64,000 nucleotides of DNA from Candidatus Pampinifervens sinense (GTDB lineage: Bacteria; Aquificota; Aquificia; Aquificales; Aquificaceae), in contig JAXSPP010000002.1 in the NCBI GenBank assembly GCA_037927135.1, positions 1 through 64,000 on the forward strand, read 5' to 3'. The position numbers and the translations under genes were made by a program. This document shows, piece after piece, positions 1-45,138 of the stretch. The notes under the pieces were generated by a model, which worked only from the letters and a program-made list of their open reading frames with translations, ran no database searches and was not told where the DNA came from. The first letter of the stretch is position 1, and the number at the start of each line of letters is the position of its first letter.

Positions 1-151
1 GCTTTTCAATGCTGGTAGTGGGTGGAGGACTTTAACTTGTGTGCTTGTGTATGTATATGCTTATGCTATTGGATATAGTTATTACAGGAGGGGTGAACTT
101 GAGGTCTAATTTCTCACCCAGCGTATAGGTTTATATTATAAACGAACTTCC

Positions 152-1072: not shown

Positions 1073-1079
1073 TTTATTC

Positions 1080-3187: not shown

Positions 3188-3224
3188 TTTTAAAACCATT
3201 ATATCTGCCTTATAATTCCCTCTT

Positions 3225-4211
3225 ATGATAAAGCAATATCTTCCTCTGATAGGCCTCCTATTTGTCCCCTTGTTTGTCCTCTTTGTAGAAAGGCTTTTCC
3301 TAAAGAGGCTAAGGTTCTACTGGGATATTTTTAAGTTTGTCCCAACACTGTGGTCCCTTCTTTTTGTCCTATATATACTTTCAGAAGAGGCAAAGCTTCC
3401 TGTAAGCCTCAAGCTCATAAAAGATAAGGCCCTTTGGGTGGTCTTTATCCTTTCCCTTTCCCTTCTCACTTCTAGGCTTGTGGCCCTCCTTTTAAGGATG
3501 TATATGAACCGCTACCGTCAAGAGATGCCAGCCGTTTCCCTTGTGGTGCAAGCCTCTAAAGTCTTGGTACTTTTGGTAGGTGTGATAATAGCCTTGGACA
3601 AGATAGGTATAGCCATAACCCCCATACTTACGGCCCTCGGTGTGGGTGGCTTGGCTGTGGCCTTGGCCCTAAGGGACACCCTTGAAAACCTCTTTGCAGG
3701 CTTTCATATGCTTGCCTCAGGACAGATAAAGGTGGGAGACTACATAAGGCTTGAAGGCGGTGAGGAGGGCTTTGTGGAAGACATCACATGGAGGAACACG
3801 GTCATAAGACAGCCCTCCAACAACCTTATAATTGTGCCAAACTCCAAGCTTTCCTCTTCCATAGTTATAAACTTTCACAAGCCAGACAGCGAACTGGCAG
3901 TTATCGTCCCCGTAGGTGTCTCTTACGACAGCGACCTTGATAGGGTAGAAAGGATAACCATAGAGGTAGCCAAGGAAGTGCAAAGGGAGGTAGAAGGAGC
4001 CGTGCCAGATTTTGAACCCTTCATAAGGTATACGGCCTTCGGCGACTTTTCCATAAACTTTAACGTGATCCTAAGGGCAAAGGATGTTCCAAGCCAGCAC
4101 ATACTCAGGCATGAGTTTATAAAAAGATTGAAAAGAAGGTATGAAGAAGAAGGCATAAAAATCCCCTTTCCCATAAGGGAGGTATATTTAAGACCTCTCT
4201 CCAAAGAGTAA
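3225..4211 (+). CDS. mscS: small-conductance mechanosensitive channel (MscS family)
   Basis: N-terminal TM helices, GVGGLAVALAL, KVGDYI, IIVPNS, GIKIPFP. Confidence 0.92.
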   Translation: MIKQYLPLIGLLFVPLFVLFVERLFLKRLRFYWDIFKFVPTLWSLLFVLYILSEEAKLPVSLKLIKDKALWVVFILSLSLLTSRLVALLLRMYMNRYRQEMPAVSLVVQASKVLVLLVGVIIALDKIGIAITPILTALGVGGLAVALALRDTLENLFAGFHMLASGQIKVGDYIRLEGGEEGFVEDITWRNTVIRQPSNNLIIVPNSKLSSSIVINFHKPDSELAVIVPVGVSYDSDLDRVERITIEVAKEVQREVEGAVPDFEPFIRYTAFGDFSINFNVILRAKDVPSQHILRHEFIKRLKRRYEEEGIKIPFPIREVYLRPLSKE

Positions 4212-4868
4212 GGTCCCTATCCTGACTATGGTAGCTCCTTCCTCTATAGCCACTTCAAAATCATGGGACATTCCCATGGAAAGGTGTGGCAAAGAAACTC
4301 CAAACTCCCTTTCAAGCTCTTCTTTTAATTCCCTCAAAAGAGAGAAGTAGGGCCTTACCTCCTGTGGGTCCTCTCTGTAGGGTGGTATGCACATAAGGCC
4401 AAGCACCTTTATATTTTCCGCCTTCAGGCACCTTTCAAAAAAGGCCTTTAGCTCTTTTGGCTCCACGCCCCCCTTTGTCTCTTCCCCTCCCACATTCACC
4501 TCTATAAGCACTTCCTGCACCTTTCCTTTTGCCTTTGCCCTCTTTTCAATCTCCTCCAAAAGGCTGTCCCTGTCCAAGGAGTGTATAAGGCTCACCTTGT
4601 CTATTATGTACTTTACCTTGTTGCTCTGTAGCCTTCCTATAAAGTGCCAATCTATAGACAGGTCCCTTAGACTTTCCCACTTTTTCAAAAACTCCTGAAC
4701 CCTGTTTTCACCAAAGGTAGAAAGGCCACAGTTAAAAAATTCCCTTAGCCTTTCTGGAGGGACGCCCTTTGATGCCCCCAAAAGTAAAACCTCTTCCCTT
4801 TTCCTTCCTGCACGCTCACAGGCAAGCCTTATCCTCTCTTCCACCTCCTTTAGCCTTTCGCAAGCCAT
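4188..4868 (-). CDS. yggS: YggS/PROSC family PLP-binding protein
   Basis: FGENRVQE, WHFIGRLQSNK, LSMGMSHDFEVAIEEGAT.VRIGT. Confidence 0.95.
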   Translation of the reverse strand: MACERLKEVEERIRLACERAGRKREEVLLLGASKGVPPERLREFFNCGLSTFGENRVQEFLKKWESLRDLSIDWHFIGRLQSNKVKYIIDKVSLIHSLDRDSLLEEIEKRAKAKGKVQEVLIEVNVGGEETKGGVEPKELKAFFERCLKAENIKVLGLMCIPPYREDPQEVRPYFSLLRELKEELEREFGVSLPHLSMGMSHDFEVAIEEGATIVRIGTLLFGERS

Positions 4869-9123: not shown

Positions 9124-10134
9124 TTATGCCCACACGCCGGGCAACCTATAGCCACAGTGGGGACACAAGCCTTCTTTAAGGTGGTTCTTTGTCCTGTAGC
9201 CTACCCTCTCTATCACCTTTTTGCCACAGTTTGGACAGTAGGTAGATTCAAGGTCCTCTTGCCAGTAGTTGCCCACATAGACAAAGTTTAGCCCCTCTTC
9301 CCTTCCTATCTCATAGGCCCTTTTTAGCTTCTCTATGGGTGTGGGCATAAGGTGTGCCATCTTATAGGCTGGGAAAAAGCGGGATATGTGCCATGGTATA
9401 TCCCTTGATAGACTTGCTATAAAGCGGGCTATCTCCCTTATTTCCTCCTCAGAGTCGTTATAGCCCGGTATGAGAAGGGTGGTTATCTCTATCCATATGC
9501 CTTTTTTGAGGGCATACTCAATGGTCTTCAATACAGGCCTCAGCCTTGCTCCGCATACCTTTTTGTAAAACTCATCGGAGAAGGACTTTAGGTCTATGTT
9601 CATGGCATCAAGGTATGGAAGGGCTATGTCTATGGCCTCTTCCGTTTCATAACCGCTGGTTACAAAGACATTTCTTATGCCCTTCTCCTTTGCAAGCCTC
9701 ATCACATCAAAGGCAAACTCAAAGAATATGATGGGTTCGTTATAGGTATAAGAGATAGAAGGTGTTTTGTAAAGCTGGGCCAGTCTTACAAGCTCCTGAG
9801 GGCTTATAGGCTCTCCAAAGACTTTATAGTTATTGTTCTGAGGATATTGGGAGATTTCCCAGTTTTGACAAAACTGGCAGGAGAAGTTGCAACCCACCGT
9901 GCCAATAGAGAGGCTATAAGTGCCAGGAAGGAAGTGATAGAGGGGCTTTTTCTCTATGGGGTCTATGTTTATGGCGGAAACAAGGCCATATACGGTAAGA
10001 TAAAGCCTTCCTCCCCTGTTTACCCTCACCCCACACTTTCCATACTCACCCTCACCCAAAACACACCTCTGACTGCAGGCCTTGCAAAGAACTTTTTCTT
10101 CCTTTTCTTCACTTAGCCAGGCCAAGGCTTCCAT
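9124..10134 (-). CDS. amrS: AmmeMemoRadiSam system radical SAM enzyme
   Basis: DPIEKKPLYHF.PG, GCNFSCQFCQNWEISQ (CxxxCxxC), YTYNEP, C-terminal CPNCG/CPHCG; start MEALAW at 10134. Confidence 0.92.
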   Translation of the reverse strand: MEALAWLSEEKEEKVLCKACSQRCVLGEGEYGKCGVRVNRGGRLYLTVYGLVSAINIDPIEKKPLYHFLPGTYSLSIGTVGCNFSCQFCQNWEISQYPQNNNYKVFGEPISPQELVRLAQLYKTPSISYTYNEPIIFFEFAFDVMRLAKEKGIRNVFVTSGYETEEAIDIALPYLDAMNIDLKSFSDEFYKKVCGARLRPVLKTIEYALKKGIWIEITTLLIPGYNDSEEEIREIARFIASLSRDIPWHISRFFPAYKMAHLMPTPIEKLKRAYEIGREEGLNFVYVGNYWQEDLESTYCPNCGKKVIERVGYRTKNHLKEGLCPHCGYRLPGVWA

Positions 10135-10152
10135 AGGGTTAAATTTATAGCT

Positions 10153-10920
10153 ATGAGGGTAAGAAAGCCAGCGGTGGCAGGCTACTTTTATCCTTCTGAT
10201 AGAAAAAGGCTTGAGGAGTATGTGGACAGGCTGATGGGGGAAAAGGTGGAGGTTGAGGGAAGCCTTAGAGGCCTCATTGTGCCTCATGCGGGCTACGAGT
10301 GCTCTGGGATTGTGGCGGGCAAGGTCTATGCCCTTTTGAAAAACAGAAGCTACAAAAAGGTAGTCCTTGTGGGACCTTCTCACTTTGTGGATTTTAACGG
10401 CTACTCCTTTGGAAGCTTTCATGCCTTTGAAACTCCCTTTGGAAGGGTAGAAGTGGACCATCTTGCCTTAAAGGACTTTCCAGAAGAAGCCTTTTGGGAC
10501 ATGCCACACCTGTATGAACACTCCCTTGAGGTTCAACTTCCATTCCTTCAGAGAACTCTAAAGGATTTTTTGCTTGTGCCTGTGGTCTACGGCAGGGTTG
10601 AAGCAAAAAAGTTAAAAGAACTTTTGGACACCCTCTGCGATGAGAATACCCTCTTTGTTATAAGCTCAGACCTAAGCCACTACTATCCTGATGAGATTGC
10701 AAGAAGGATAGATGCCTACTGCCACAGGTGGATCCTTGAAGGAAAGGAGAATCTTAAAAAAGGATGTGAAGCCTGTGGAAAGATAGGGATTGAGGGTGCC
10801 TTACTTTATGCCAAAGAAAAGGGCCTAAAGGCCAAACTTGTAGACTATAGGACATCTGCGGAGACATGCGGGGATGACAGAAGGGTGGTAGGCTACGGTG
10901 GTTATGTTTTTATCTCATGA
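10153..10920 (+). CDS. amrB: AmmeMemoRadiSam system protein B (MEMO1 family)
   Basis: RKPAVAGYFYP, PHAGY..SG, GPSH, EHSLEVQLPFLQ, SSDLSHY, VVGYG. Confidence 0.93.
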   Translation: MRVRKPAVAGYFYPSDRKRLEEYVDRLMGEKVEVEGSLRGLIVPHAGYECSGIVAGKVYALLKNRSYKKVVLVGPSHFVDFNGYSFGSFHAFETPFGRVEVDHLALKDFPEEAFWDMPHLYEHSLEVQLPFLQRTLKDFLLVPVVYGRVEAKKLKELLDTLCDENTLFVISSDLSHYYPDEIARRIDAYCHRWILEGKENLKKGCEACGKIGIEGALLYAKEKGLKAKLVDYRTSAETCGDDRRVVGYGGYVFIS

Positions 10921-30768: not shown

Positions 30769-32843
30769 TGGAGATCGCACGCGCAAAGGTTGGAAGCTCA
30801 GAGGTAATAATAGAGACGGGAAAGTATGCTAAGCTGGCAGATGGCGCTGTAGTTGTAAGACAAGGAGATACGGCCGTATTGGTAACTGCCGTAATGTCTG
30901 AGGAGCCAGTTCAAGGTATAGACTTCGTTCCCCTTTCTGTAGATTACCGCGAGCAGGCTTCCGCATGGGGTAAAATACCCGGTGGCTTTATAAAGAGGGA
31001 AGGGAAGCCCACCGACAGGGAAATACTGGTATCAAGGGTAATAGACAGGCCCATAAGGCCTATGCTGCCTGAAGGCTTTTTCCACGAGGTGGTCATAACA
31101 GCCCTTACCCTTTCGGCCGATGACAAGTATGATCCCGATGTGCTTGCCATAACGGGAGCCTCTGCAGCCCTGCACATATCAAGGATACCCTTTGACGGTC
31201 CAATAGCGGGTGTAAGGGTATGCAGGATAGACGGTAAGTTTGTGGCAAACCCTACCTACGAGGAAAGACAAAGGGCAGACCTGGATATAGTCATGGCTGG
31301 AAGCAAAGATGCTATAGTGATGGTAGAGGGTGGTGCAAAGGAGGTGGATGAGGACACCTTTACCGATGCTCTATACTTTGGCCTTGAGGCCATACAGGAC
31401 CTTTTGAGGGCCCAGGAGTACTTGAGGGAAAGGGTAGGTGTGCCAAAGGTAAGCTTTGAGGGTATGGAGCTGCCAGAGGAGCTCCAAAAGGCTCTTGAAG
31501 AGTTTTGCACAGAAAAGATCCTTCAATCCTTTAACATCTCCGACAAGAGGGAAAGGAAGACCTTCCAAGCGAACATACTCAAAGAGTTCATAGAGGCAAA
31601 TCAGATTCCTGAAGAGTGGCACTTTAAGCTAAGCTATAACTACAAAAAGCTTATAAGCAAGCTTATGAGAAAGAGGGTCTTGGAGGAGGGTGTTCGCATT
31701 GATGGAAGGGGTCCAAAGGACATAAGGCCCATAAGCATAGAAGTTCATCCCTTTGAAAGGCCTCACGGTAGCGCCATATTTACAAGGGGTCAAACTCAGG
31801 CCTTTGCTACAGCTACCCTTGGATCTCCAGAGGAAGCCCAGCTTGTAGAAAGCATATATGAGGGTGAGACCTTCAAGAGGTTCATGCTACACTACAACTT
31901 CCCACCCTTCTCCACCGGTGAAGCCAGGCCTTGGGGCCCACCAAGAAGGAGGGAGATAGGCCATGGAGCCCTGGCAGAAAGGGCTATAGAGCCCTTAATA
32001 CCACCGGAGACGGAGTTTCCTTACATAATAAGGGTGGTTTCCAACATACTTGAATCCAACGGCTCCACTTCCATGGCTACCGTGTGTGCAGGTTCCCTTG
32101 CCCTCTTTGATGCGGGAGTGCCCCTCAAAAAGCACGTGGCTGGCATAGCCATGGGCCTTATCATGGAAGGCGACAGATACGTTATCCTTTCGGACATTTT
32201 GGGAGATGAGGACCAGCTTGGTGATATGGACTTTAAAGTGGCTGGCACAAAAGATGGAATAACGAGCGTTCAGATGGATATAAAGATAAAGGGCCTCAAA
32301 AAGGAGATAATGAGGGAGGCATTGTACCAGGCAAGGGAAGGAAGGCTGTATATACTTGAGAAGATGTATGAGGCCATTCCTGAGCCAAGGAAGGAGGTAT
32401 CCCCTTATGCACCTAAGATAGAGATAATGACCATACCCGAGGATAAGGCTTTGGTGGTCATTGGCCCAGGTGGAAGGAATGTGAGGGAGTTCAGGGACAA
32501 GATGGGTGTGTCCGTGTGGGTCCATGAGGGTGGAAGGGTCTCCTTGACCTCTCATTCAAAGGAGGCCATAGAGGAGGTGAAGAAGATCATACAAAACCTT
32601 ATTGCAGAGGTGGAGGTAGGCAAGGTCTATAAGGGTAGGATAACAAGGGTGGAGCCTTATGGTGTCTTTGTGGAGATCTTGCCCGGTAAGGTGGGGCTCT
32701 TGCATGTGAGCAAGATGGAAGGGTATATTAAAGATGTAAGGGCAAAGTTTAGCGTTGGTGATGAGATTGTGGTCAAAGTATTTGAAGTAGATGAACAGGG
32801 AAGGCCTAGGTTGACTACCATAGGTATAAATGAGCCGGCGTAG
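30765..32843 (+). CDS. pnp: polyribonucleotide nucleotidyltransferase
   Basis: [45 protein letters not shown] and S1 domains. Confidence 0.97.
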
Positions 32844-32905
32844 CTCAGCGGCAGAGCGAGGCACTCGTAATGCCTAGGTCGTGGGTTCAAATCCCACCGC
32901 CGGCT
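32834..32905 (+). tRNA. tRNA-Thr(CGT)
   Basis: Acceptor GCCGGCG/CGCCGGC, anticodon arm AGGCA-CT-CGT-AA-TGCCT, GGTTCAAATCC; no CCA; first 10 nt overlap the end of pnp. Confidence 0.95.
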
Positions 32906-32916
32906 TGGAGAAAATC

Positions 32917-33366: not shown

Positions 33367-34554
33367 ATGGATCTTCACAGCCTATTTCTTTATCTTGCCA
33401 TAATCCTCTTCCTTGCACGCATCATAGGCGATACCTTCGGAAGGCTTGGATTTCCTCCCGTGCTTGGTGAGATACTGGTGGGCATCCTACTTGGCAAGAG
33501 CGCCTTAGGAATAATAGAGCCCAACGAGGTTTTAAGGCTATTGGCTGAGATAGGTGTAATCCTTTTGCTTTTTCATATAGGCTTGGAGGCAGACATAAAC
33601 CAGCTTAAAAAGGTTGGCCTTTCGGCCTTTGTGGTGGCCTTTGTGGGCGCCTCTACACCCATGCTCCTTGGAACCTTAGCAAGCTACTACCTTTTGGACC
33701 TTTCTTTGACTACCTCCCTCTTTCTGGGAGGCACTTTAACGGCCACAAGCATAGGCATAACGGTAAGGGTGCTTGACGACCTTGGAAAGATGAAGGAGAG
33801 GTTTGCCCAGATAGTTTTGGGAGCTGCTGTGCTTGACGATATATTCGGAGTGATAGTCTTGGCAGCCCTCTATGAGTTTTCAAAGGAGGGAATAGTTCAT
33901 TTTGATGCCCTTACCATGCTTGTACTATACATAACAACCTTCTTTATCCTTTCTCCCATCTTGGCCCAGATATTGGCAAGGGTTATAAAAATACTTTCCC
34001 AAAAGCTAAAAACGGAAGACTTTATACCACCAACCGTTATAGCCCTTGTCTTTCTTTTTGCCTTCCTTGCCCATGAGGTGGGCTCTCCAGAGATACTTGG
34101 AGCCTTTACGGCAGGCCTTGCCCTCTCAAGGCGCTTTGCCCTACCCTTTGCCATGTTTTTGAAAACCGATGAAAAAATGGCTCACAAGATAGAGCATACC
34201 ATAATGCCTTTAGTTTGGGTTTTGACACCCATCTTCTTCGTTTATGTAGGACTTCAGCTAAACCTAAAAGCCATTGATTTCACTTCACAAAAGTTCTGGA
34301 TGCTTTCCCTGCTTATACTGCTTATAGCCATAGTAGGAAAGGTTATCTCTGGCTTCTTTGTAAGAGGATCTATGAGGGAAAAACTTCTTATTGGCTTTTC
34401 TATGTTGCCTAGGGGAGAGGTGGGCCTTATCTTTGCAGAGTTTGGAAGGCAGATAGACCTCTACGATGATACCCTTTATGCGGTGGTCATCTTTGTGGTG
34501 GCCATCACCACCCTTATGGCTCCTATTGTGTTAAAGATGCTTGCTAGGGCATGA
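33367..34554 (+). CDS. CPA2 family cation:proton antiporter (NapA-like)
   Basis: PVLGEILVG, AEIGV.LLLF..GLE, ATSIGIT, AAVLDD, PRGEVG. Confidence 0.92.
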   Translation: MDLHSLFLYLAIILFLARIIGDTFGRLGFPPVLGEILVGILLGKSALGIIEPNEVLRLLAEIGVILLLFHIGLEADINQLKKVGLSAFVVAFVGASTPMLLGTLASYYLLDLSLTTSLFLGGTLTATSIGITVRVLDDLGKMKERFAQIVLGAAVLDDIFGVIVLAALYEFSKEGIVHFDALTMLVLYITTFFILSPILAQILARVIKILSQKLKTEDFIPPTVIALVFLFAFLAHEVGSPEILGAFTAGLALSRRFALPFAMFLKTDEKMAHKIEHTIMPLVWVLTPIFFVYVGLQLNLKAIDFTSQKFWMLSLLILLIAIVGKVISGFFVRGSMREKLLIGFSMLPRGEVGLIFAEFGRQIDLYDDTLYAVVIFVVAITTLMAPIVLKMLARA

Positions 34555-35555
34555 GGGTAGAAGACTTTGACTACCACCTGCCAGAGGAGCTAATAGCCAA
34601 GTATCCTGTTGTGCCAAGGCACAGCGCCAGGCTTATGGTTCTAAACAGAAGGGAACAAAGCATAAAGCACGACATCTTTTGGAACCTTCCCCTCTATTTA
34701 GAAGAAGGAGATCTTTTGGTCTTTAACAACTCAAAGGTCTTGCCCGCAAGGCTATACGGAAAGAAGCCCACCGGTGGGAAAGTGGAGGTGCTTCTGACAG
34801 ACTTTATCACAAAAGAAGAGTGGTATGCCCTGGTAGGTGGGAAGAATATAAAGGAGGGATTGCAGATATATGTGGGTGAGGATCTGATAGTGGAGGTGCT
34901 GGAGCATGTGGAGGGTGGCAAGTTTAAGGTAAGGCTCTTGTCGGAAGACCCCCTCAAAGCCCTTGACAAGCATGGCAAAATACCCATACCGCCCTACTTA
35001 AAGCGTGAGGAGGAGCCCATAGACAGGGTCTACTATCAAACGGTCTTTGCACAAGTGGAAGGCTCCGTGGCTGCGCCCACTGCAAGCCTCCACTTTTCAG
35101 AAGAGCTTTTAAAAAGGCTGGAAGAGTATGGGATTAAAAAAGCTTTTATAACCTTACATGTTTCCTATGGCACCTTCAAGCCGGTAAAGGTGGATGAGGT
35201 GGAGCTCCACAGGGTAGACCCAGAGTATGTAAAGGTGCCAAAAGAGACTATTGAGCTCATAAGGGAAACAAAGGAGAAGGGCAAAAAGGTAATAGCCGTG
35301 GGCACCACAGTGGTAAGGGCCTTGGAGACTGCCGGCTTTGAACCCTTTGAAGGCTGGACAGACCTTTACATATACCCAGGCTATTCTTTTAAGGTGGTGG
35401 ATGCCCTCATCACCAACTTTCACCTGCCAAGGTCTTCCCTCCTTTTCCTCGTTTGCGCCTTTGGAGGAAGGGAGTTTATTTTAAGGGCTTACCAGGATGC
35501 TATAAAGGAGAGATACAGGTTCTATAGTTATGGGGATGGGATGTTGATATTGTAA
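34551..35555 (+). CDS. queA: S-adenosylmethionine:tRNA ribosyltransferase-isomerase
   Basis: FDY.LPEELIA, PPYL.R, YQTVFA, AAPTA.LHF, VGTT.VRALE, TNFHLP.S, YRFYSYGD. Confidence 0.97.
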   Translation: MRVEDFDYHLPEELIAKYPVVPRHSARLMVLNRREQSIKHDIFWNLPLYLEEGDLLVFNNSKVLPARLYGKKPTGGKVEVLLTDFITKEEWYALVGGKNIKEGLQIYVGEDLIVEVLEHVEGGKFKVRLLSEDPLKALDKHGKIPIPPYLKREEEPIDRVYYQTVFAQVEGSVAAPTASLHFSEELLKRLEEYGIKKAFITLHVSYGTFKPVKVDEVELHRVDPEYVKVPKETIELIRETKEKGKKVIAVGTTVVRALETAGFEPFEGWTDLYIYPGYSFKVVDALITNFHLPRSSLLFLVCAFGGREFILRAYQDAIKERYRFYSYGDGMLIL

Positions 35556-35609
35556 AGAATAAACGGAGATTAATAAAATATTTTTTTTAGAAAATCAGAG
35601 AGCGCTAAC

Positions 35610-36773
35610 ATGATAGCCGTTGTGAGTATTTATGATGATGTTAACAGCATACTGAACGTGTATAACGATATGGTTTTAGATAGTGAGAGGTTTAAAAAGT
35701 TCAAAAAGGATATTGCTTCTTTTGGTTGTAGGCTTGTAAAATTGGGTGATAAGTATTACAAGATTTTGAAAAAGAAAAAAGCTGTAGGTCATGTGCATAT
35801 AGTATCCTATCCCTTTTGGCACTCTTTAGTAAAAGACTTTAGAGATTGGTTCAAAAATTGCTTCCTTGTTCGTGTGGAAGCCCAGAATTTTCCCATACCT
35901 GCCCCCACAGGAATCACGGATAGGGCTATCCTTACTTATGTAAAAGGTATGTATCTACTATTTCCAAACAGTAATGTAATGTATTTTGCTGGCGAGGGTT
36001 TGGAGTATGTTTATACTGAGGACACCTCAGGCTACGGTTTGCTTTTTATCCAAAGGTATGTTAAAATAGAATATAGGAGGGCTAGCATGAAACAAAAAGA
36101 AAATATACCTATAGAGGTTAAAAACTTAGGCTCAAAAGAGGCAGACAAGCTTGACTTTTCAAGAGAAGAGCTCTATAAACGCATGGACCCCTATCCTTTT
36201 ATGTCAAAAAGAGCTACCGAAGTTCCCGTATACCTGGTAAATCCAAAGCAGATGGATATAGTAAGCCCTCCGGAATATTCAAAGTGCATAGACGAGGAAG
36301 AAATAATCAAGTGGGTAGAAAAATGGATAAAGGAGATAGAAGATTACAAAATCCTTGATGAGGAAGCTATAAAGTCCTTAGCTGATGCCAGAGATATACA
36401 GGAATGTATGCGTGAATCTGAGGAATGTAATAAGGGGTTTGAGGCTGTAGGCTTGTATATAAGTGAAGAATTAGGTAAGCAAAAAGAACAAGAATTGCTT
36501 AATAATGCAGAAATCCCTCTTAATAATGTTTATATAAAATACCCATGCATCTTCATATGTCCAGAGAGGGTTATAGAACGTGCAAAGAAGTATGAAGTTG
36601 ATGTTAATTTATGCTTAGATATGGTTTATTATCATGAATTGGCTCATGCTGTAATGGATAGTAAGCGTAGGGGTATTAATTTAGGAGATGCTTGGGCAAA
36701 AGTTATAGAAGAAAGCTTGGCAAACTGGCTCTCATATAGCTGTTTTACTGGTATCTCTTTCAAAGAATTTTGA
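35610..36773 (+). CDS. hypothetical protein with C-terminal zincin-like HExxH motif; possibly two fused genes and 3'-truncated
   Basis: VYYHELAHAVMD...IEESLAN; internal AGGAGG (36075-36080) and in-frame ATG 36087. Confidence 0.6.
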   Translation: MIAVVSIYDDVNSILNVYNDMVLDSERFKKFKKDIASFGCRLVKLGDKYYKILKKKKAVGHVHIVSYPFWHSLVKDFRDWFKNCFLVRVEAQNFPIPAPTGITDRAILTYVKGMYLLFPNSNVMYFAGEGLEYVYTEDTSGYGLLFIQRYVKIEYRRASMKQKENIPIEVKNLGSKEADKLDFSREELYKRMDPYPFMSKRATEVPVYLVNPKQMDIVSPPEYSKCIDEEEIIKWVEKWIKEIEDYKILDEEAIKSLADARDIQECMRESEECNKGFEAVGLYISEELGKQKEQELLNNAEIPLNNVYIKYPCIFICPERVIERAKKYEVDVNLCLDMVYYHELAHAVMDSKRRGINLGDAWAKVIEESLANWLSYSCFTGISFKEF

Positions 36774-37686
36774 GCGAATTCAAATAAATTGGGGAGGAGG
36801 AGAGCTAAGTTTATTGGGGAAGGATATTTTCAGGAAGATAGTCAACACACATGCTTTCAAGGATAAGAAGTTTTACAACAAGTTATATAGCATGTTAGTT
36901 CCACATTTGGATAAGGAATGGCTTGAATTAATTCATAAGTTTGATAGCATGCAGATATCTATAGACAGTTATCGGAAAAGGAATTTTTACACACAAGAGT
37001 ATTTAGAAAAGATAAGGTCATTAAATTTAACAAAGAGCATTTCTTACACGCCTCACAAAGAAGACAGTAAAGAGTTTTTGAGGTATTGCTTTGAGGTTGC
37101 AAAAGGTATAAATGCGAGCGTTTTCCATTTAGGGGTGCTTTATACTAACAAGCCAGAAGAAATTGTGCCTGTAAGTAAGATGATAGAGCTGTTTTATTGG
37201 GCTTTGGAGTTGGCAGAAGAATATGAGATAGAATTAGGTTTTTGGGGAGGTGAAGTAGAAGGTTTTTACTATTTAGATGAGTGTGTAGGCTGGACAGCCT
37301 TTAACTGTTTTAACAATGGTTTTTATATAAGGTCGGATGGAAGCATGTCTTCTTGCACTATAATAGAGGAATATGCGAAAATGTTTATAAAGCCACAATC
37401 CGTAGACATAACCTTTCTTAGCAATGCGGATTATCACAAGGTAAAAGATATAAATACGGGTTTTATAAACACTGTTTTCTTAAAACCTCATCCTGATTGT
37501 TTAGAATGTAATTACTATCCTTTATGTAAGGGAGGATGCCCTTTCTTTAGATTTCTTGGCAGAGGGAAAGACATTTACTGTTCCTATTACAAGGTAATTC
37601 TTGATACACTGTTAAAAAGGGAAAGGAGAAGGCTACTGCCTTCCCCCTCAATTGGTTCAGAAAACAAAGCCCACTTGCAGTCCTAA
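36751..37686 (+). pseudogene. 5'-truncated radical SAM/SPASM protein
   Basis: Frame reads ...ERIQINWGGGELSLLG... and has SPASM cysteines (CFNNGFYIRSDGSMSSC; CLECNYYPLCKGGCP; DIYC). It is closed upstream by TAG 36706, with no CxxxCxxC and no ATG before the GGGE motif. Confidence 0.75.
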
Positions 37687-38460
37687 TCTTTCCTCCTTGC
37701 CATTGGAAGTAGTGTATCTACCTATATGGTCATAAAAGCTCTTATGTTCTCTTCTTTCATAGAAGACGCCTGCGGTGAGTAATTTCCACTTTATGCCTGC
37801 GGATACATTGTATCCTACCTTTTTACCCATATCCTTTTCTATTGAACCTATCCCAGCATAACTTTTATCAAGCTTTACCTTATTTTTCAGTGGAAGCAAA
37901 ACTTTGCCATCCAAATATAACATCTTGTATTCAAGCCTCATGCCTAAGCCAGTGTATAGATATTTGTAGTCGTCAGAGTATGAACCTTCAGTATCCTGCC
38001 ATTGATTTTGATCTTTATCAAACTCCTTAGCAAGATAGTCTACATTCATTTTCCTGAAAGAATAGCCAATAGGGATATATCCTGTTATGGCTACTCCCTT
38101 TAGATTTCCTTCAAAGCGGTCATATTTGTATCCCACTCTGCCTTCTCCTTGAAGTTCCACATGCTTGTATTTAGCTGAGGTATAGTAAAAGACAGAAGAT
38201 TCCACTTTTGCGTCTCCATCGCCCACATAATAAGCGGATAGGTCGCCCTCCAGTCTTACATTACCAAAGGAGTGCCCAAGTCCCATCTTCAATCCATAGA
38301 AGGTCCCATCGTATTTGACTTTACCTTCCTCTCCACTGTCTCTTCTGTAGTTTGCCTTTTGTTGAAAACTGCCCACAACTGGAGTAATGCTAAAATCCAG
38401 TGCGTTGGCTGTGCCAACTGATAAGGCAAACAAAGCTCCTACTGCCAAAGCCTTTTTCAT
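37657..38460 (-). CDS. outer-membrane beta-barrel protein
   Basis: GGAGGTG SD, signal peptide MKKALAVGALFALSVGTANA, amphipathic Gly/Tyr-rich strands, C-terminal GLQVGFVF. Confidence 0.8.
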   Translation of the reverse strand: MKKALAVGALFALSVGTANALDFSITPVVGSFQQKANYRRDSGEEGKVKYDGTFYGLKMGLGHSFGNVRLEGDLSAYYVGDGDAKVESSVFYYTSAKYKHVELQGEGRVGYKYDRFEGNLKGVAITGYIPIGYSFRKMNVDYLAKEFDKDQNQWQDTEGSYSDDYKYLYTGLGMRLEYKMLYLDGKVLLPLKNKVKLDKSYAGIGSIEKDMGKKVGYNVSAGIKWKLLTAGVFYERREHKSFYDHIGRYTTSNGKEERLGLQVGFVF

Positions 38461-38497
38461 CTTGCACCTCCTTTTAAAGAGTTTTGCATACATGTTT

Positions 38498-38526
38498 ACT
38501 ATAGCACAAAAACATATAATTGTCAA
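38498..38526 (-). promoter_or_regulatory. near-consensus sigma70 promoter of the OMP gene
   Basis: Minus strand TTGACA (38526-38521), 17-bp spacer, TATAGT (38503-38498) with extended TGn. Confidence 0.75.
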
Positions 38527-38554
38527 GTCTAAATTAAGCATATAATTTATAAGT

Positions 38555-38728
38555 ATGGCAAGGAAGGGATTATGGGTTAAGCGGGATTTGACAAGAATAA
38601 CCACGCATATTCCTACGGAGCTTTACGCCCTTTTAAAGGAAAAGGCAAAGTCTGAGGGCAAGACAATGTCTCTGGTAATAACTGAGATTTTGGAGAAAGA
38701 GCTTAGGCAAGTGCAATATAATAAATAG
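38555..38728 (+). CDS. 57-aa ribbon-helix-helix (CopG/Arc-like) DNA-binding protein (not in ORF track)
   Basis: MARKGLWVKRDLTRITTHIPTELYALLKEKAKSEGKTMSLVITEILEKELRQVQYNK: strand RITTHIP, helix, G-K-T turn, helix; TATAAT 8 nt upstream; ends 2 nt before the rSAM start. Confidence 0.75.
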   Translation: MARKGLWVKRDLTRITTHIPTELYALLKEKAKSEGKTMSLVITEILEKELRQVQYNK

Positions 38729-38730
38729 TT

Positions 38731-39990
38731 ATGAGGAGAACGTTTCTTTACCTGCGACTAACAAACAGATGCAATTTAAGATGCCCGCATTGTTATATTC
38801 CAGACTATAAAGGTGATATGTCCTTAGATATAGTAAAGAGGGCTTTTGAATATTTCTCAGATAGAGAGTTGACAGTAAGTTTACATGGAGGCGAGCCTAT
38901 CCTTGTGGGTAAGCGTGGTCTTTTCAACGTATTAGAGTTATTTAATAAACAGCGGAAGCATTCTGACACAATCTACATTCAAACCAATTTGCATTATGAT
39001 GTGGAGAGTTTTATAGATTTCTTTAAAACTTTGGACGGTGTAGGAACGTCAATGGATGAGGGCAGAGATAATAAGGTTTTGTATAAGAATATTGATAGAC
39101 TTTTAGAGGAAGGGATAGATATTCATGTTAATATTACGCTTACTGATGCGTATATTGACAGCGGAAAGTTTAGCGAGGATATAAAATTCATTGAGAGTAG
39201 AGGGGTAGGTTTTAGAATAGAACCTTATGTTTATGTTCCTGGTAAGATTTCCCTTTTCAATTACAGAAGGTATATGGAAATAGTGGATGAGTATATGAAG
39301 CATCCCCTTTATACTGCAAAGCATACAGTTTGCGGAGTAAACAAAGTAGTGATTGGCGGTAATTGTGCGAAAGACGGGCTAAGGGTTGTGGATGCAGATG
39401 GTGAGGTGTATATATGTCCTAATTTAGCAGGGTATAAGATGTTTTCCATAGGGAACATAATGGATGATAGTTTTAGCGATGATTTAAGGATAAATAAACT
39501 TGGCATGAAGATTTTTCATGAGAGGGCAAAACAGATAGTATTAAAGACGGATTGTGGTAATTGTCAGAATTTTGCTTGGTGTGAGGGCGGATGTGTAGCG
39601 AACAATATTTTCAAAAATTGGCACAAATTAAAGAGGGAAGAAGATTATATACTTGAAAAGAAGCCCTATTGTTTCATAGGATTGAAAAAAAATTCGCCTA
39701 TAGAATACAGGGGCTACATTCATATTTCAGAAGCCTTTCACAAGCTTTTGGAGTTTTTCTATAATCGTTATAAGAATTGGGTTCTATGGGAGCCCTGGGT
39801 GTATAAGCTTCTTTTTAATTACGACCTATCAACGCATATATTTGAAGCATGGAGCGGGGGAGATACCTATATATTACCTCTTAGTTTAAGGTTGAAAGGG
39901 GAGTCATTTAGATTTGGATACTGGCAACTCTATTCAAAGTTTTTGCTTTTGAGTATGTTAAAGGACAAGATCCGCACCTTTCTTAGTTAA
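38731..39990 (+). CDS. radical SAM/SPASM-domain protein
   Basis: LTNRCNLRCPHCY (CxxxCxxC), LHGGEP, IQTN; SPASM NC...VDADGEVYIC and CGNCQNFAWCEGGC...YC. Confidence 0.9.
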   Translation: MRRTFLYLRLTNRCNLRCPHCYIPDYKGDMSLDIVKRAFEYFSDRELTVSLHGGEPILVGKRGLFNVLELFNKQRKHSDTIYIQTNLHYDVESFIDFFKTLDGVGTSMDEGRDNKVLYKNIDRLLEEGIDIHVNITLTDAYIDSGKFSEDIKFIESRGVGFRIEPYVYVPGKISLFNYRRYMEIVDEYMKHPLYTAKHTVCGVNKVVIGGNCAKDGLRVVDADGEVYICPNLAGYKMFSIGNIMDDSFSDDLRINKLGMKIFHERAKQIVLKTDCGNCQNFAWCEGGCVANNIFKNWHKLKREEDYILEKKPYCFIGLKKNSPIEYRGYIHISEAFHKLLEFFYNRYKNWVLWEPWVYKLLFNYDLSTHIFEAWSGGDTYILPLSLRLKGESFRFGYWQLYSKFLLLSMLKDKIRTFLS

Positions 39991-40689
39991 TACTTCTGTA
40001 AACTTTTCTATAATCTCATCTTTATCTTCTGAATTAGATAAAACTCTTAGCCAATCGTCAAATTTATGAGGCGATGATATTACCTTATCAATCCCGGTCA
40101 TACTTAAAATTGATTTTGCTGTTTTACGCTTTATAAGCCTCTCTCCATCTATAATATACACCTTCTCCACTTTTTTAAAAACATCTATGTTAGCGTTTTC
40201 ACTCCTCAAAAGCTCCAAAATCTTACCCGCAGCACTATTGCTATCATTATACTTATCAAACAAAAGCACACCAAAAAGCATATCATAGTCATACCTTATT
40301 GAGTTTTCTATTAGATATTCCTCTAAACCTTCTATGTTTATTTCACACATATCCAAGTATGCTTTCAAAACCGGTTGAGGATGTTTATTTTTCATAAAAC
40401 ATCTTGTTCGTTCGCATAGTTGTATAAGTTCGCTTATAAACCGCCCATTGTTGGCTATATTGTCCGTTTTAAACCTCCAAACATAGCCCACAACCCAGCC
40501 CCTTTCCGCCTTAACTGCAAAATGACAAAATACTTCCTCCTCCTTATCATCCACTGGGCGAAAGCATACCATATACTCCCCTTTGCTCTCAACAGCTTCC
40601 AAAGCTCTTAGCCCTGCCGGTAGGCTATGTATTTGAGTGTCAAACCCCCTATTCTTAAAACCTTCCTCTAATCTATCCAATCCTCCCAT
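39958..40689 (-). CDS. hypothetical protein
   Basis: 243-aa ORF; TATAAT 7 nt before ATG; no recognised motif. Confidence 0.6.
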   Translation of the reverse strand: MGGLDRLEEGFKNRGFDTQIHSLPAGLRALEAVESKGEYMVCFRPVDDKEEEVFCHFAVKAERGWVVGYVWRFKTDNIANNGRFISELIQLCERTRCFMKNKHPQPVLKAYLDMCEINIEGLEEYLIENSIRYDYDMLFGVLLFDKYNDSNSAAGKILELLRSENANIDVFKKVEKVYIIDGERLIKRKTAKSILSMTGIDKVISSPHKFDDWLRVLSNSEDKDEIIEKFTEVLTKKGADLVL

Positions 40690-40704
40690 GTTATTAATTA
40701 TATG

Positions 40705-42285
40705 CTATTTTGCGTTAAGTTGTAAGTCCTCCACTATATCCACAAAAGCCTTTATCCTATTATACTGGGTAGCAACGCTTTGATAGTCTATAGGATTGGA
40801 CGAGGAAAAGCCAAAAAGGTTTGTATCAAAATCTATGGCTATGAAAATACGCGAATCTATAAAGGAAATTCTTATGCCCTTTGCCTTCATCCGCCTAAGC
40901 CTTTCCCAAAGGCTTACTATTCTCCGCATAAGTTCTGGAGAAAGTATGTGTCTTGATTCAATATGATCCTCTCCAAAGGTATTGAAAAGATTTTCAAAGG
41001 CAGGGTCCTCCAGCTTTATGCGTTTAAAGTTGTTTAAATTTATTTTTTCTCCCTTTGGTAGCAAAATTACTTTTTTAGTAAAGCTTTTGTTAAAATCCGC
41101 CATAAAAAATACACCACGAAAAACATCATACCATACCCTTTCTGTCCGTGTTACAGTTTCGGTCCGTGTATTTCCAAAGGCATCCGTATATGTGCGAGTT
41201 TCCGTATATGTGCGCACCTCTTCGTGTAAAGCATGCACTTGGCTAAATTCTATGGAAATAGCCCCCACTGTTCCGCTTATCAAGGCACTACCACTATACC
41301 TATTTATGCTTGGCTTTGTTATAAAAAGCATGCTTTCATTAACAACTTCAATGGGAATATAGTTATCAGGTTTATATTCTAAATTTGGCTCAATAAATTT
41401 AACTATCTTGTTCATAATGTTTGTAGTTTGTTCCTTAAACTCCTTTTCAAACCCACGGGATAATAACTTTATAATTATAAAGTAGGCTATTATACCCACT
41501 ATGAAAAACAAAATTGCAAATTCTGGTGAATATAAAAGTATGGTAAAACCGATAATGGCCAAATATGACAAAAGACCTATCTTCCACATGAATAGATTAT
41601 GCTTCTCACTTTTTCTTCTTTCTTCTAATGGTTCAACTATAAGCTTTAATTCTTTATTATAAAACTCTTCAAAAATCTTCTCATGTTTTTCATCCTTAAA
41701 AGTAATTTCCACATCCAGCTCTTCCTTTCTTACCTTAAACTCCTCCCTTATTTCATAAAGTTCGTATGGCTTAAAATTAAAAAGTTCAGCCGTTAAACTA
41801 TACCATGCGCTTTGCAACATTCCATTATATTTAGCCACCTTTTCGTTGTAATCTTCTACCAATGATGTGATGGCGCGCCTTGCGGCAAATAATTTATTTT
41901 TTATCTCATTTAACTCAAAGCTAAGCTCGGAAAAGTTTTCATTAGCTCCAAATGGTTGATTTTTATATACACTATCTATAAAATCTTCCAAAAGTTCTTG
42001 CATCTTTTTATACACCTTTAGCCTTTCTTGAATAATCTCTTGAAAAGGTATACCCTCTACAAAGGCTCTGTTTTTTAACTTTGACAATTGGTTTAATATG
42101 CTATCTCCACTAAAAGGTGGGATAATATTATGTAAGTTCATTAGCATACTGTCTGCCTCATATATAACCTTTTCTATGTCTGCCTTTATTGATGATATTT
42201 CTTTAACCCTTTCCTTAAGCCTTCTGTGGAATATCATGAAAAATAAAACAGCTATAAGCACTAAAGCTAATATCCAGTATTCTAT
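40705..42285 (-). CDS. LemA-like domain fused to DUF3137-like membrane protein
   Basis: LemA-like ANENF..L..EL......L.AARR...YN..V..YN...F.F.P; DUF3137-like FRG.F..ADFNK.F, LEDP.FE..F, R.ILSP.LM; start ATA 42285 (SD-supported) or GTG 42261. Confidence 0.7.
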   Translation of the reverse strand: MEYWILALVLIAVLFFMIFHRRLKERVKEISSIKADIEKVIYEADSMLMNLHNIIPPFSGDSILNQLSKLKNRAFVEGIPFQEIIQERLKVYKKMQELLEDFIDSVYKNQPFGANENFSELSFELNEIKNKLFAARRAITSLVEDYNEKVAKYNGMLQSAWYSLTAELFNFKPYELYEIREEFKVRKEELDVEITFKDEKHEKIFEEFYNKELKLIVEPLEERRKSEKHNLFMWKIGLLSYLAIIGFTILLYSPEFAILFFIVGIIAYFIIIKLLSRGFEKEFKEQTTNIMNKIVKFIEPNLEYKPDNYIPIEVVNESMLFITKPSINRYSGSALISGTVGAISIEFSQVHALHEEVRTYTETRTYTDAFGNTRTETVTRTERVWYDVFRGVFFMADFNKSFTKKVILLPKGEKINLNNFKRIKLEDPAFENLFNTFGEDHIESRHILSPELMRRIVSLWERLRRMKAKGIRISFIDSRIFIAIDFDTNLFGFSSSNPIDYQSVATQYNRIKAFVDIVEDLQLNAK

Positions 42286-42332
42286 TTCCGACCCTCCCCA
42301 GTTTATATTTTAAGCTTTAAGCTATACTTTAA

Positions 42333-43793
<1,461 letters not shown>

Positions 43794-43797
43794 TTAA

Positions 43798-45138
43798 TTA
43801 TATTCCAACCTCAATGCCGTACTGCCTTATCTTCCTGTAGAGGTTGGAAAGGTCTATGCCTATGGTCTCCGCAGTCCTCTTGAGGTCATAGTTATACTCC
43901 CTTAGCTTCCTTTCTATAAACAGTTTTTCAAACTTCTGTCTTGCCCTCCTTAGGTCCTTTTCTAAAAGTAAAGAGTTTATGTCCTCTGGCTGGTGGTCAA
44001 AGCCAAGCAAGTATCTTAAATCCCTCTCTGTTATCTGTATCCCTTCATGCAATAGGGCAAGCCTCTCCATAAGATTTTTTAACTCCCTGACGTTTCCTTT
44101 CCATTGGTAGGTAAGCAAAAGCCTTTTGGCATCTTCACTCAAATATTTGCTGGGCTTTCCATACTTCTTAAGGTAGTGGTCCAGAAAATGTTCTGCCAGA
44201 AGAAGGATGTCATCACCCCTTTCTCTAAGCGGTGGAAGGCTAATCAAAAAGGTGGATATTCTGTGATAGAGGTCCTCTCTAAACCTGCCCCTTTCTACTT
44301 CTTCTTTCAGATCCTTGTTGGAGGCGCATATGAGCCTAAAGTCGGACCTTATGGTTTGAGTGCCCCCAAGCCTTGTAAACTCCTTTGTCTCCAAAACTCT
44401 CAAGAGCTTGGCTTGAGCTTTGGGACTGAGTTCGGATACCTCATCAAGGAACAAGGTGCCACCGTGGGCAAGCTCAAGCTTCCCTAGCTTTCTATGAGTG
44501 GCTGAAGTGAAGGCTCCCTTCTCATAACCGAAGAGCTCTGCTTCCACCAGATCCTCTGGGAGTCCTGCGCAGTTTATGTCTATAAAGGGCCCTTCAGACC
44601 TGTTTGACAGCCTATGTATGCTTCTTGCTACAAGCTCTTTACCCGTCCCACTTTCACCTATTATGAGAACGCTGGCATCCGTTTTGGCTATCTTGTTAAT
44701 CAACTCCTTCACATACAGCATCTGTTTGCTTTCACCCAAAATCTCATCTTCATCCTTTTCCCTTCTTGACCTTATGGTCTCTTTGAGTGCCTTTTCTATG
44801 GTTAGCAGAAGTCTATCCATTGAAAAGGGCTTTTCCAAAAAGTCATAAGCCCCCTCCTTTACAGCCCTTACTGCGTGCTCGCTTTTGCCATGGCCCGTTA
44901 TCACTATGATGGCAGACCCCGGGAGGCTCTCTTTGAGATAGCCTATATAATCAAGGCCGTTTCCATCGGGAAGCCAAAGGTCCAAAAGGACGCAGTGGAA
45001 GTAGTTTTTCTCTACCAAGCCCTTCATAGACCTTATACTGTCTGCAGTAAAGACCCTATAGCCCTCCTCCTCAAGTATGCCCTTTAGAGTATCCCTTATG
45101 GCCTTCTCATCATCCACCACAAGGATGTTCACTTCCAT
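43798..45138 (-). CDS. sigma54-dependent response regulator (NtrC/NtrX family)
   Basis: Receiver VVDDE/LLD/KP, GESGTGKE, GAFTSA, LFLDEV, FREDLY, Fis-type HTH. Confidence 0.9.
   Translation of the reverse strand: MEVNILVVDDEKAIRDTLKGILEEEGYRVFTADSIRSMKGLVEKNYFHCVLLDLWLPDGNGLDYIGYLKESLPGSAIIVITGHGKSEHAVRAVKEGAYDFLEKPFSMDRLLLTIEKALKETIRSRREKDEDEILGESKQMLYVKELINKIAKTDASVLIIGESGTGKELVARSIHRLSNRSEGPFIDINCAGLPEDLVEAELFGYEKGAFTSATHRKLGKLELAHGGTLFLDEVSELSPKAQAKLLRVLETKEFTRLGGTQTIRSDFRLICASNKDLKEEVERGRFREDLYHRISTFLISLPPLRERGDDILLLAEHFLDHYLKKYGKPSKYLSEDAKRLLLTYQWKGNVRELKNLMERLALLHEGIQITERDLRYLLGFDHQPEDINSLLLEKDLRRARQKFEKLFIERKLREYNYDLKRTAETIGIDLSNLYRKIRQYGIEVGI

Follow-up and report, generated by a model that had tools for sequence, protein, structure and literature searches.

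The AT-rich island that separates queA from guaB in Candidatus Pampinifervens sinense is probably a nested mosaic, built up by at least two nested insertions, and not one coherent gene cluster. It lies in the 64,000-nucleotide stretch of contig JAXSPP010000002.1 (assembly GCA_037927135.1) that we analysed, hereafter called the window. The island carries a gene for a protein with an HExxH motif, two radical S-adenosylmethionine (rSAM)/SPASM genes (B and E), genes for an outer-membrane protein (OMP) and a ribbon-helix-helix (RHH) protein, an orphan open reading frame (ORF F) and a LemA-DUF3137 gene (G). An initial annotation of this DNA had read them as one protein-modification module. Comparison with homologues showed that a fragment of 2,922 bp (36751-39672), as read from the assembled sequence, has been inserted inside the HExxH gene.

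A foreign fragment inside the HExxH gene

The annotated HExxH protein corresponds to an ORF of 387 residues (35610-36773). We observed that its 27 relatives besides itself, which have 273-378 residues, start at codon 159 of this ORF and extend about 100 residues beyond its stop. An HExxH gene is present, as annotated, but the ORF is a composite of 158 unrelated N-terminal codons and an HExxH gene truncated at its 3' end. Window positions 36084-36773 aligned with residues 1-218 of the homologue P0009 (48% identity, E-value 1e-67). The rest of the gene was found on the far side of the fragment, where 39673-39987 aligned with P0009 residues 226-319, up to the last residue (E-value 7e-8); this tail also matched the HExxH family in hhalign (E-value 2.6e-6). 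The order and strand of the two parts are conserved, and about seven codons are missing between them.

Both ends of the fragment are intragenic: the left cut removes the start of gene B, and the right cut the end of gene E. The frame of B is open from 36751 and is 92% identical to residues 44-354 of the 354-residue P0072. The truncation of this gene had been noticed in the initial annotation; the first 43 residues of its 354-residue relatives are absent, including the CxxxCxxC motif (CSLGCSHC, residues 16-23 of P0072), and the first cysteine in the open frame is residue 113. At the other end, the ORF 38731-39990 had been taken for an intact rSAM/SPASM gene, and proved to be a chimera of 419 residues, with rSAM/SPASM sequence in codons 1-314 and the 3' end of the HExxH gene in the last 105 codons. 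It is 99% identical to the 325-residue P0001 through C314, the last SPASM cysteine, and different from there on. P0001 ends 11 residues after this cysteine, and these 11 native codons have been lost; the C-terminal ending of P0001 was sought in the other frames of the window and was not found. The partial erosion proposed earlier is therefore borne out, and is stronger than first thought, with three genes broken.

Table 1. Features of the island and its flanks (window coordinates).
Feature	Position	Strand	Basis or remark
queA, left chromosomal flank	34551..35555	+	NF001140 5e-137, above NCBIfam cutoff
AT-rich composite island, strain-specific	35556..42330	.	GC content; no likeness to the queA-guaB gaps of relatives
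158-codon stretch of other origin, in frame into HExxH gene	35610..36083	+	HExxH homologues begin at codon 159
Zincin-like HExxH gene, 5' two-thirds (pseudogene part 1)	36084..36750	+	homology stops at CFTG, codons 36739-36750
Foreign fragment, 2,922 bp	36751..39672	.	hot-spring metagenome contigs match 36752-39655, then diverge
rSAM/SPASM gene B, 5'-truncated	36751..37686	+	P0072 residues 44-354; first possible start TTG at 36814
Terminator-like hairpin 3' of OMP gene	37612..37649	-	12-pair stem 37649-37622 in cassette, then T-run CCCTTTTTAA outside
OMP cassette, 872 bp	37620..38491	.	same DNA between repeats of a CRISPR array in sister species G024
Outer-membrane beta-barrel-like protein (ATG at 38460)	37657..38463	-	signal peptide ending ANA; C-terminal VGFVF; 9.8% Tyr
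Promoter-like site for OMP gene, just outside shared cassette	38498..38526	-	TTGACA-17-TATAGT with TG, 11/12 matches
Arc/CopG-like RHH protein	38555..38728	+	RHH_5 4e-5; stop 2 nt before start of E
rSAM/SPASM gene E, codons 1-314 (natural length 325)	38731..39672	+	PF04055, SPASM; cluster Cys all kept
HExxH gene, 3' third (pseudogene part 2), in-frame tail of E	39673..39990	+	matches P0009 C-terminus
Orphan ORF F, 243 aa, 3' of G on same strand	39958..40689	-	no family
Fused LemA-DUF3137 membrane protein G, 518 aa	40705..42261	-	DUF3137 2e-29, LemA 4e-10
guaB (IMP dehydrogenase), right chromosomal flank	42333..43790	-	TIGR01302 2e-199, above NCBIfam cutoff

The fragment in hot-spring metagenomes

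Twenty public runs, which belong to 7 studies and all carry the label hot springs metagenome, contain at least parts of the fragment, and 7 of the 20 hold half or more of its sampled words. We aligned the contigs of four runs from four studies to window positions 34000-44000. These contigs matched 36752-37649 and 38457-39655 at 97.7-99.8% identity (3 differences in 898 bases, 2 in 1,199, 3 in 988, 8 in 1,184 and 15 in 898). Beyond the fragment they left the window homology on both sides. Leftward, contigs of 1,405 and 6,772 bp continued into up to 5,874 bases of other DNA. Rightward, the same was seen in contigs of 2,255, 4,995, 5,208 and 5,251 bp, the last three holding 4,007-4,264 bases of DNA that is not in the window. 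The depth of the fragment contigs was 17-123, which is a rough figure. No contig of the four runs covered 35670-36337 or 39678-41013, which we do not use as evidence of absence, and a few further bins were covered only by contigs of run X3 with a depth of 2-5.

The 90% cluster members bear the names of metagenome-assembled genomes (MAGs) of Bathyarchaeia and Nanopusillaceae. Such labels on a bacterial-looking gene set suggest loosely binned foreign DNA. The inner layer of the island is a fragment of a foreign, low-depth hot-spring replicon inside the HExxH gene, which has lost some seven codons.

The island at the queA-guaB junction

The AT-richness of the island was confirmed: its GC content is 0.360 (35556-42330), as against 0.470 and 0.452 in the flanks, and the GC content at third codon positions is also lower (0.33-0.48 in the island genes, 0.57 in queA and 0.52 in guaB). 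Both flanking genes, identified by family scan, are present in 23 of 24 same-genus genomes. They are convergent with 6-8 bp between them in 12 of the 23, are separated by a gap of another size in four (311 bp, 1,076 bp, 1,338 bp and 10.8 kb), and stand on separate contigs in seven, which are draft genomes. When the four longer gaps were compared with the island, nothing in common was found; the largest, of 10.8 kb, is occupied by housekeeping genes and a transposase-like ORF. Horizontal acquisition, which had been proposed in the initial annotation, is supported, because the island fills a junction that measures 6-8 bp in 12 of the 23 genomes, has a foreign base composition, and holds an rSAM gene, E, with no orthologue in 60 relatives (best other match E-value 9e-11, over the generic core).

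The convergent queA-guaB junction is variable in the genus, with unrelated inserts at G015:C1:1371469-1372544 (1,076 bp), G013:C36:10840-12177 (1,338 bp) and G018:C32:118772-119082 (311 bp). At the island borders there is no tRNA, the nearest being tRNA-Thr at 32833-32906, and a search there for flanking direct or inverted repeats gave none that was convincing. Rfam yielded no family over 35000-43000.

The ORFs lie in the order given by the initial annotation, and the family scans agreed with it for the RHH, LemA-DUF3137, SPASM-only and rSAM/SPASM ORFs. Radical_SAM and SPASM were detected at 38731-39990, SPASM by itself at 36814-37686, a weak RHH match at 38555-38728, and LemA with DUF3137 at 40705-42261. 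No significant family was obtained for the HExxH ORF, the OMP or the 243-residue ORF. PADLOC recovered from the island proteins the generic rSAM core only, plus a weak AbiEi match (E-value 0.018). Family scans revealed no sulfatase among the island ORFs, the rest of the genome not having been searched for sulfatases, and no precursor gene was seen within the 2.9-kb fragment. The HExxH, LemA-DUF3137 and OMP genes showed no link to the rSAM pair, and the single protein-modification module could not be upheld.

The outer layer of the island

The outer layer comprises the HExxH gene, with the 158-codon ORF fused upstream, and on the opposite strand a two-gene unit of LemA-DUF3137 followed by the 243-residue orphan. 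No homologue of the 158-codon stretch was found in 178 genomes of the phylum. Its last 35 codons before the HExxH start (35979-36083) share 75% identity with the N-terminal end of an unrelated XseA-like (Exonuc_VII_L) cluster of Aquificota MAGs (P0030, P0061, P0065). This piece, in frame before two different genes, could represent either a conserved 5' module or an anchor for recombination.

In the alignment of the HExxH family, H179, E180, H183, E202 and E203 are invariant in 19 sequences, which gives HExxH followed by EE 19-20 residues on. The predicted model (predicted local distance difference test, pLDDT, 83) had no Foldseek match in the PDB at E <= 0.001. In the VIA-align wide search, it was closest to YbeY (Z 8.9) and to M1 peptidases (Z 7.0-7.8), while the HExxH domain of ChlB (8s5f) came at rank 26 (Z 5.9), below many peptidases. 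With all Z scores below 9, motif and predicted fold lead us to assign the family, with moderate confidence, to the gluzincin-type zinc hydrolases.

The initial annotation had also made the HExxH protein a partner of the rSAM genes. This partnership was not sustained: an rSAM fragment interrupts the gene, and a homologue occurs in 5 of 177 other genomes of the phylum, at loci with no rSAM gene and no other island protein nearby. The adjacency is an accident of the insertion of the rSAM fragment into the HExxH gene. In settings that resemble defence islands, HExxH homologues stand beside McrBC, HerA with a trypsin-like protease, three successive dynamin-like GTPases, or a WYL protein (including L257 G058:C40 370-11623 and L261 G119:C52 260-7299).

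LemA-DUF3137 and the 243-residue ORF belong to this outer layer and not to the inserted fragment. Both domains of G are above the Pfam gathering score (LemA, PF04011, 40.1 against 26.2 bits; DUF3137, PF11335, 102.6 against 26.1 bits). The closest relative, G015, has LemA and DUF3137 elsewhere as separate adjacent genes, 32% and 48% identical to the two halves of G, whereas here they are fused as one protein of 518 residues in foreign DNA. The island copy is the only LemA-DUF3137 of this genome, and we know of no function for LemA or DUF3137. For ORF F there was no Pfam, NCBIfam, PADLOC or PHROG family and no usable Atlas match, and its 90% cluster has a single member.

The rSAM/SPASM pair B and E

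Gene E has cysteines 14, 18 and 21 in CxxxCxxC, and 212, 229, 275, 278, 284, 288 and 314 in the SPASM region. It passes the PF04055 gathering score (30.0 against 29.5 bits) and the SPASM cutoff of TIGR04085 (47.4 against 27 bits), with the seven-cysteine pattern present. Gene B matches by its SPASM domain only (TIGR04085 2e-7, 31.3 bits against the cutoff of 27). In this genome B would be unable to cleave S-adenosylmethionine (SAM), because the motif that binds the radical-SAM cluster has been lost. The RHH protein upstream of E is below the Pfam gathering scores (RHH_5 23.6 against 26 bits; RHH_1 18.7 against 20.5), and matches three Arc-like repressor PHROGs (4e-5 to 6e-4).

Relatives of the two enzymes are few. 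B has four, at 41-70% identity; for E, 5.8 billion clusters yielded only six real relatives, of 314-348 residues each. The profile of E, run against 1.84 billion representatives, gave 9 at E <= 8e-47 and 20 at E <= 1e-30. When the E alignment was searched against metagenome, genome and viral contigs, there were among the matches listed only generic rSAM/SPASM proteins, whose identity over extended matches did not exceed 28%; a few N-terminal segments of fewer than 60 residues scored above 28%. In phage and plasmid records E reached at most 25% identity (12 phage and 2 plasmid records), and B had no match in phage records. The last 21 residues of B (37618-37686) are encoded antisense to the OMP terminator region, within the cassette described below. 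More distant B homologues end 5-13 residues past a conserved LLK.

Homologues of B and E stand on contigs of identical size: 13,272 bp (P0081, P0005), 24,306 bp (P0082, P0002), and 4,648 and 73,136 bp (P0084/P0085, P0003/P0086). Because these sizes are identical, we infer that the two co-occur in three further lineages. The earlier suggestion that the rSAM/SPASM genes belong together holds in so far as their homologues seem to share contigs in three lineages, but the pair appears to be disabled here. B is without the SAM-cluster motif, and the activity of E, at best a chimera, is uncertain, so the island would not work as a protein-modification module.

We further evaluated the class of these enzymes. 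By sequence profile against solved structures, E matched the sulfatase maturase anSME over its full length (8e-13) and CteB (1e-11). The fold of its predicted model (pLDDT 70) matched CteB, anSME, SuiB, SkfB and ChlB, with MoaA, BtrN and viperin scoring lower. E is far under the curated family cutoffs (PapB 67.4 against 340, DynA 58.9 against 450, TIGR04083 65.3 against 300 and TIGR03942 53.3 against 349 bits). B, too, is far below every curated cutoff, and the intact P0072 reaches 40.3 bits against TIGR03942 (cutoff 349). In E the rSAM motif begins at residue 14, and in P0072 at residue 16, which leaves no room for an N-terminal domain of the RiPP recognition element (RRE) type, RiPPs being peptides that are made by ribosomes and modified after translation. 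Both B and E match the viral rSAM family phrog_1802 (5e-19 and 5e-22). The PADLOC model pVip aligned with E residues 8-111 only (profile positions 4-103 of 257, 7e-9), with no full-length match.

That B and E are peptide or protein modifiers of the anSME/CteB type has, in our estimate, about an even chance. The top fold matches, anSME/AtsB (4k37) and CteB (5wgg), also have an rSAM core followed by a full seven-cysteine SPASM domain, and B and E resemble anSME in size (325-354 residues) and in having no N-terminal RRE. They differ in that no sulfatase or SCIFF-type precursor is visible here, and in that B and E are divergent paralogues kept together as a conserved pair; in the lineage seen, an RHH gene also lies upstream of E. 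In the native replicon B and E would form a conserved pair of small RRE-less rSAM/SPASM enzymes, with an Arc-like RHH repressor directly upstream of E in the single lineage seen. Such a pair would most likely cross-link or oxidise residues of a peptide or protein encoded outside the fragment.

The next-nearest group to E is the TIGR04083 family (E-values of 1e-39 to 1e-28 among the 1.84 billion proteins). In its tandem forms of about 770 residues, two rSAM/SPASM units would act together in one fused chain. The second half of P0095 has no specific resemblance to B, and we treat these double proteins as an analogy, not as a fused form of B and E. Many proteins of about 730-830 residues (P0095-P0100 and others) hold two rSAM/SPASM units, and P0095 and P0097 are above the TIGR04083 cutoff.

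The OMP cassette and a CRISPR array

The OMP gene appears to form a cassette of its own, equipped with a promoter and a terminator, and probably continues to be expressed. Its product matched the TDE1717 barrel model weakly (1e-4, below the cutoff). The initial annotation had put forward this tyrosine-rich OMP as a candidate substrate of the rSAM enzymes; the tyrosine content (9.8%), the signal peptide and the C-terminal phenylalanine were all found, but the cassette is independently mobile and bears no mark of a substrate. An orthologue is present in 1 of the 60 relatives, the sister species G024, at 93% identity. There the cassette DNA is 93% identical to the window, as against 79% and 75% for the adjacent housekeeping genes metG and nfi.

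In G024 the gene stands in a CRISPR locus, L252 (G024:C1:1297000-1316999) 9472-10614. After the leader come a repeat, 20 nt and a second repeat (3 mismatches); 31 nt containing a ribosome-binding site then lead to the OMP ORF, and 37 nt separate the ORF from the last repeat. The three repeats have 0, 3 and 0 mismatches, and the units between them measure 20 and 836 nt. Canonical arrays hold 51 distinct spacers of 34-42 nt, so this locus does not have regular spacers. The DNA common to the window and G024 runs exactly from repeat edge to repeat edge, and a CRISPR repeat stands after the OMP hairpin stem in place of the T-run. Immediately upstream of the first repeat, 160 nt share 97-98% identity with three canonical leaders (189 aligned bases), and the promoter is conserved. 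At the same nfi-leader-array-metG site, a normal array occurs in the sister species G016, with 10 repeats and one degenerate repeat (by eye).

Contigs over 37620-38491 in the four runs had depths of 83-4,769, and several end in the CRISPR repeat of the genus, while the same 872 bp without repeats are found in the window and in low-depth metagenome contigs. The core of this repeat is present in 14 of the 24 same-genus genomes, in arrays with a period of 65-67 bp, and has no match in the P. sinense genome, which is 99.96% complete; either this genome lacks arrays or they were left out of the assembly. We also compared the 51 distinct ordinary spacers of the fetched arrays with the window and found no real match, and none of the short DNA matches from the genus search lies within an array. 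A similarity of the 20-nt unit to window positions 38527-38545 (14/19, by eye) was judged compatible with chance in AT-rich DNA. Near the OMP/CRISPR locus (L252 4544-5909 and 13621-14493), G024 has a tandem of two genes that fuse a nucleotidyltransferase with HepT (MNT-HepT-like), and another HepT-domain gene.

We tentatively suggest, at somewhat less than an even chance, that the OMP gene records the capture of a whole working gene by a CRISPR array, a foreign-replicon piece of 836-872 bp having entered the spacer slot of a pre-existing, leader-driven array. The array copy would have been cut out of the donor context into the spacer slot, rather than the reverse. The captured piece would comprise the complete OMP ORF and its ribosome-binding site, without its own promoter or the T-run of its terminator. 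The array form would be that of G024 and of the high-depth hot-spring contigs, and the island in the window would keep the donor ('protospacer') context. In the array the promoter of the CRISPR leader would drive transcription of the OMP gene, which processing of the repeats could release.

These features resemble spacer acquisition by Cas1-Cas2 in that the OMP gene of G024 is bounded exactly by repeats behind a genuine leader, that a sister species has a normal array, and that a foreign replicon carries the same DNA with no repeats around it, as expected of a protospacer. They differ in that the insert has 836 bp instead of the 34-42 bp of spacers and is a whole gene in the sense orientation, and in that the leader-side repeat has 3 mismatches and is preceded by a 20-nt unit. 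Simple acquisition does not account for this degenerate middle repeat or the 20-nt unit, and the sequence alone does not discriminate between Cas1-Cas2 and recombination as the cause. Non-canonical integration by Cas1-Cas2 has reportedly been described by Nivala et al. in 2018. Among the records listed, our literature search gave nothing relevant on genes or very long spacers within CRISPR arrays.

Alternative explanations

Several points weigh against the interpretation given above. The junctions 36750/36751 and 39672/39673 are known from the assembled sequence and not from reads of the source sample, and the donor could be a virus, a plasmid or the chromosome of another organism, homologues being on contigs of up to 66.9 and 73.1 kb. 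None of the 10 cluster cysteines of gene E is missing, and its product may retain activity, either by itself or as the fusion. The pairing of B and E elsewhere is drawn from equal contig sizes, not from contigs seen; the peptide or protein assignment leans on nearest neighbours far under their cutoffs (PapB 67/340, TIGR04083 65/300 and anSME 53/349 bits); and no substrate, precursor or sulfatase was identified among the ORFs of the fragment and the island. As regards the junctions, it is highly improbable that both are chimeric metagenome joins with no real insertion. The genome is in 12 contigs, the run holding most of the fragment was flagged as a possible source, and the OMP cassette is common to the fragment and to far more abundant sequence, a kind of repeat that invites misjoins. 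However, a misjoin would not resume the same gene about seven codons on, in the same strand and order, and the junctions are 870 bp and 1,180 bp away from the shared cassette. That the sequence re-enters the same gene cleanly, with the order unchanged, renders misassembly unlikely.

The nested mosaic must also be weighed against readings in which the genes function together. That of a single horizontally acquired, partly eroded protein-modification cluster (HExxH, two rSAM/SPASM, OMP and RHH genes, with the OMP as a possible substrate) we regard as very improbable. HEXXH enzymes that depend on alpha-ketoglutarate (PflC/PosC) accompany some RiPP clusters, according to the part of PMC12636437 available to us, and these oxygenases share with our locus the motif and the presence of an rSAM enzyme beside an HExxH protein. 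The HExxH domain of ChlB is among the structural neighbours of our model (Z 5.9), and the ChlB rSAM domain matches E. However, the rSAM fragment physically divides the HExxH gene and is joined elsewhere to other DNA at both sides, which makes the adjacency accidental in our reading; five HExxH homologue loci have no rSAM gene or other island protein; the OMP cassette moves independently; and the HExxH model, with HExxH and EE 19-20 residues on, fits zincin hydrolases (YbeY Z 8.9, M1 aminopeptidase Z 7.8) better than it fits ChlB. A defence island, with a zincin-like protease, LemA-DUF3137 and its partner, and an RHH-controlled rSAM effector resembling viperin or an abortive-infection toxin, is also improbable, if less so. 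The neighbours of the HExxH homologues (McrBC, HerA with a trypsin-like protease, a WYL protein, three dynamin-like GTPases), the match of the N-terminal core of E to pVip (7e-9), the likeness of the directly upstream RHH to antitoxin and repressor families, and the variability of the insertion site in the genus speak for it. Yet the fit of PADLOC models to the island proteins does not extend past the generic rSAM core (residues 8-111), the HExxH gene is disrupted, and E has a full seven-cysteine SPASM domain, which to our knowledge viperins lack. Conserved pairing of two SPASM enzymes is, moreover, typical of maturase systems. Somewhat less unlikely, though still not favoured, is that B and E in their native replicon modify a nucleic acid, nucleotide, sugar or cofactor, for example in the hypermodification of virus DNA or in anti-defence chemistry. 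This would be in keeping with the matches to phrog_1802 (5e-19 and 5e-22) and of the RHH to phage Arc-like repressors, with B and E having no RRE domain, with no precursor gene being seen in the fragment, and with jumbo-phage rSAM proteins (22-25% identity) as the sole phage matches; but the full-length neighbours are all peptide or protein modifiers (anSME, CteB, SuiB, SkfB, ChlB, PapB, DynA and TIGR04083), and MoaA, BtrN and viperin score lower. The available part of the Aquificae-virus paper PMC7689252 has no mention of radical SAM, SPASM, outer membrane, CRISPR repeat or ribbon-helix-helix.

Significance

As annotated, the 387-residue 'HExxH protein', the 290-residue SPASM protein and the 419-residue 'radical SAM protein' represent two pseudogene pieces and a chimera, and would mislead genome mining; the apparent HExxH-rSAM cluster arose by accident when the fragment was inserted. 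B and E themselves would make up a minimal, RRE-less pair of rSAM/SPASM enzymes that is very rare and comes from mobile or low-abundance hot-spring DNA. The E family has about 9 representatives in 1.84 billion proteins, and the intact P0072 and P0001 are the forms worth expressing. The OMP cassette is seen both in a donor context and in a genuine array, which makes the capture of gene-sized DNA into arrays directly testable. If this reading is true, CRISPR adaptation, or recombination at the repeats, would be a route of gene acquisition.

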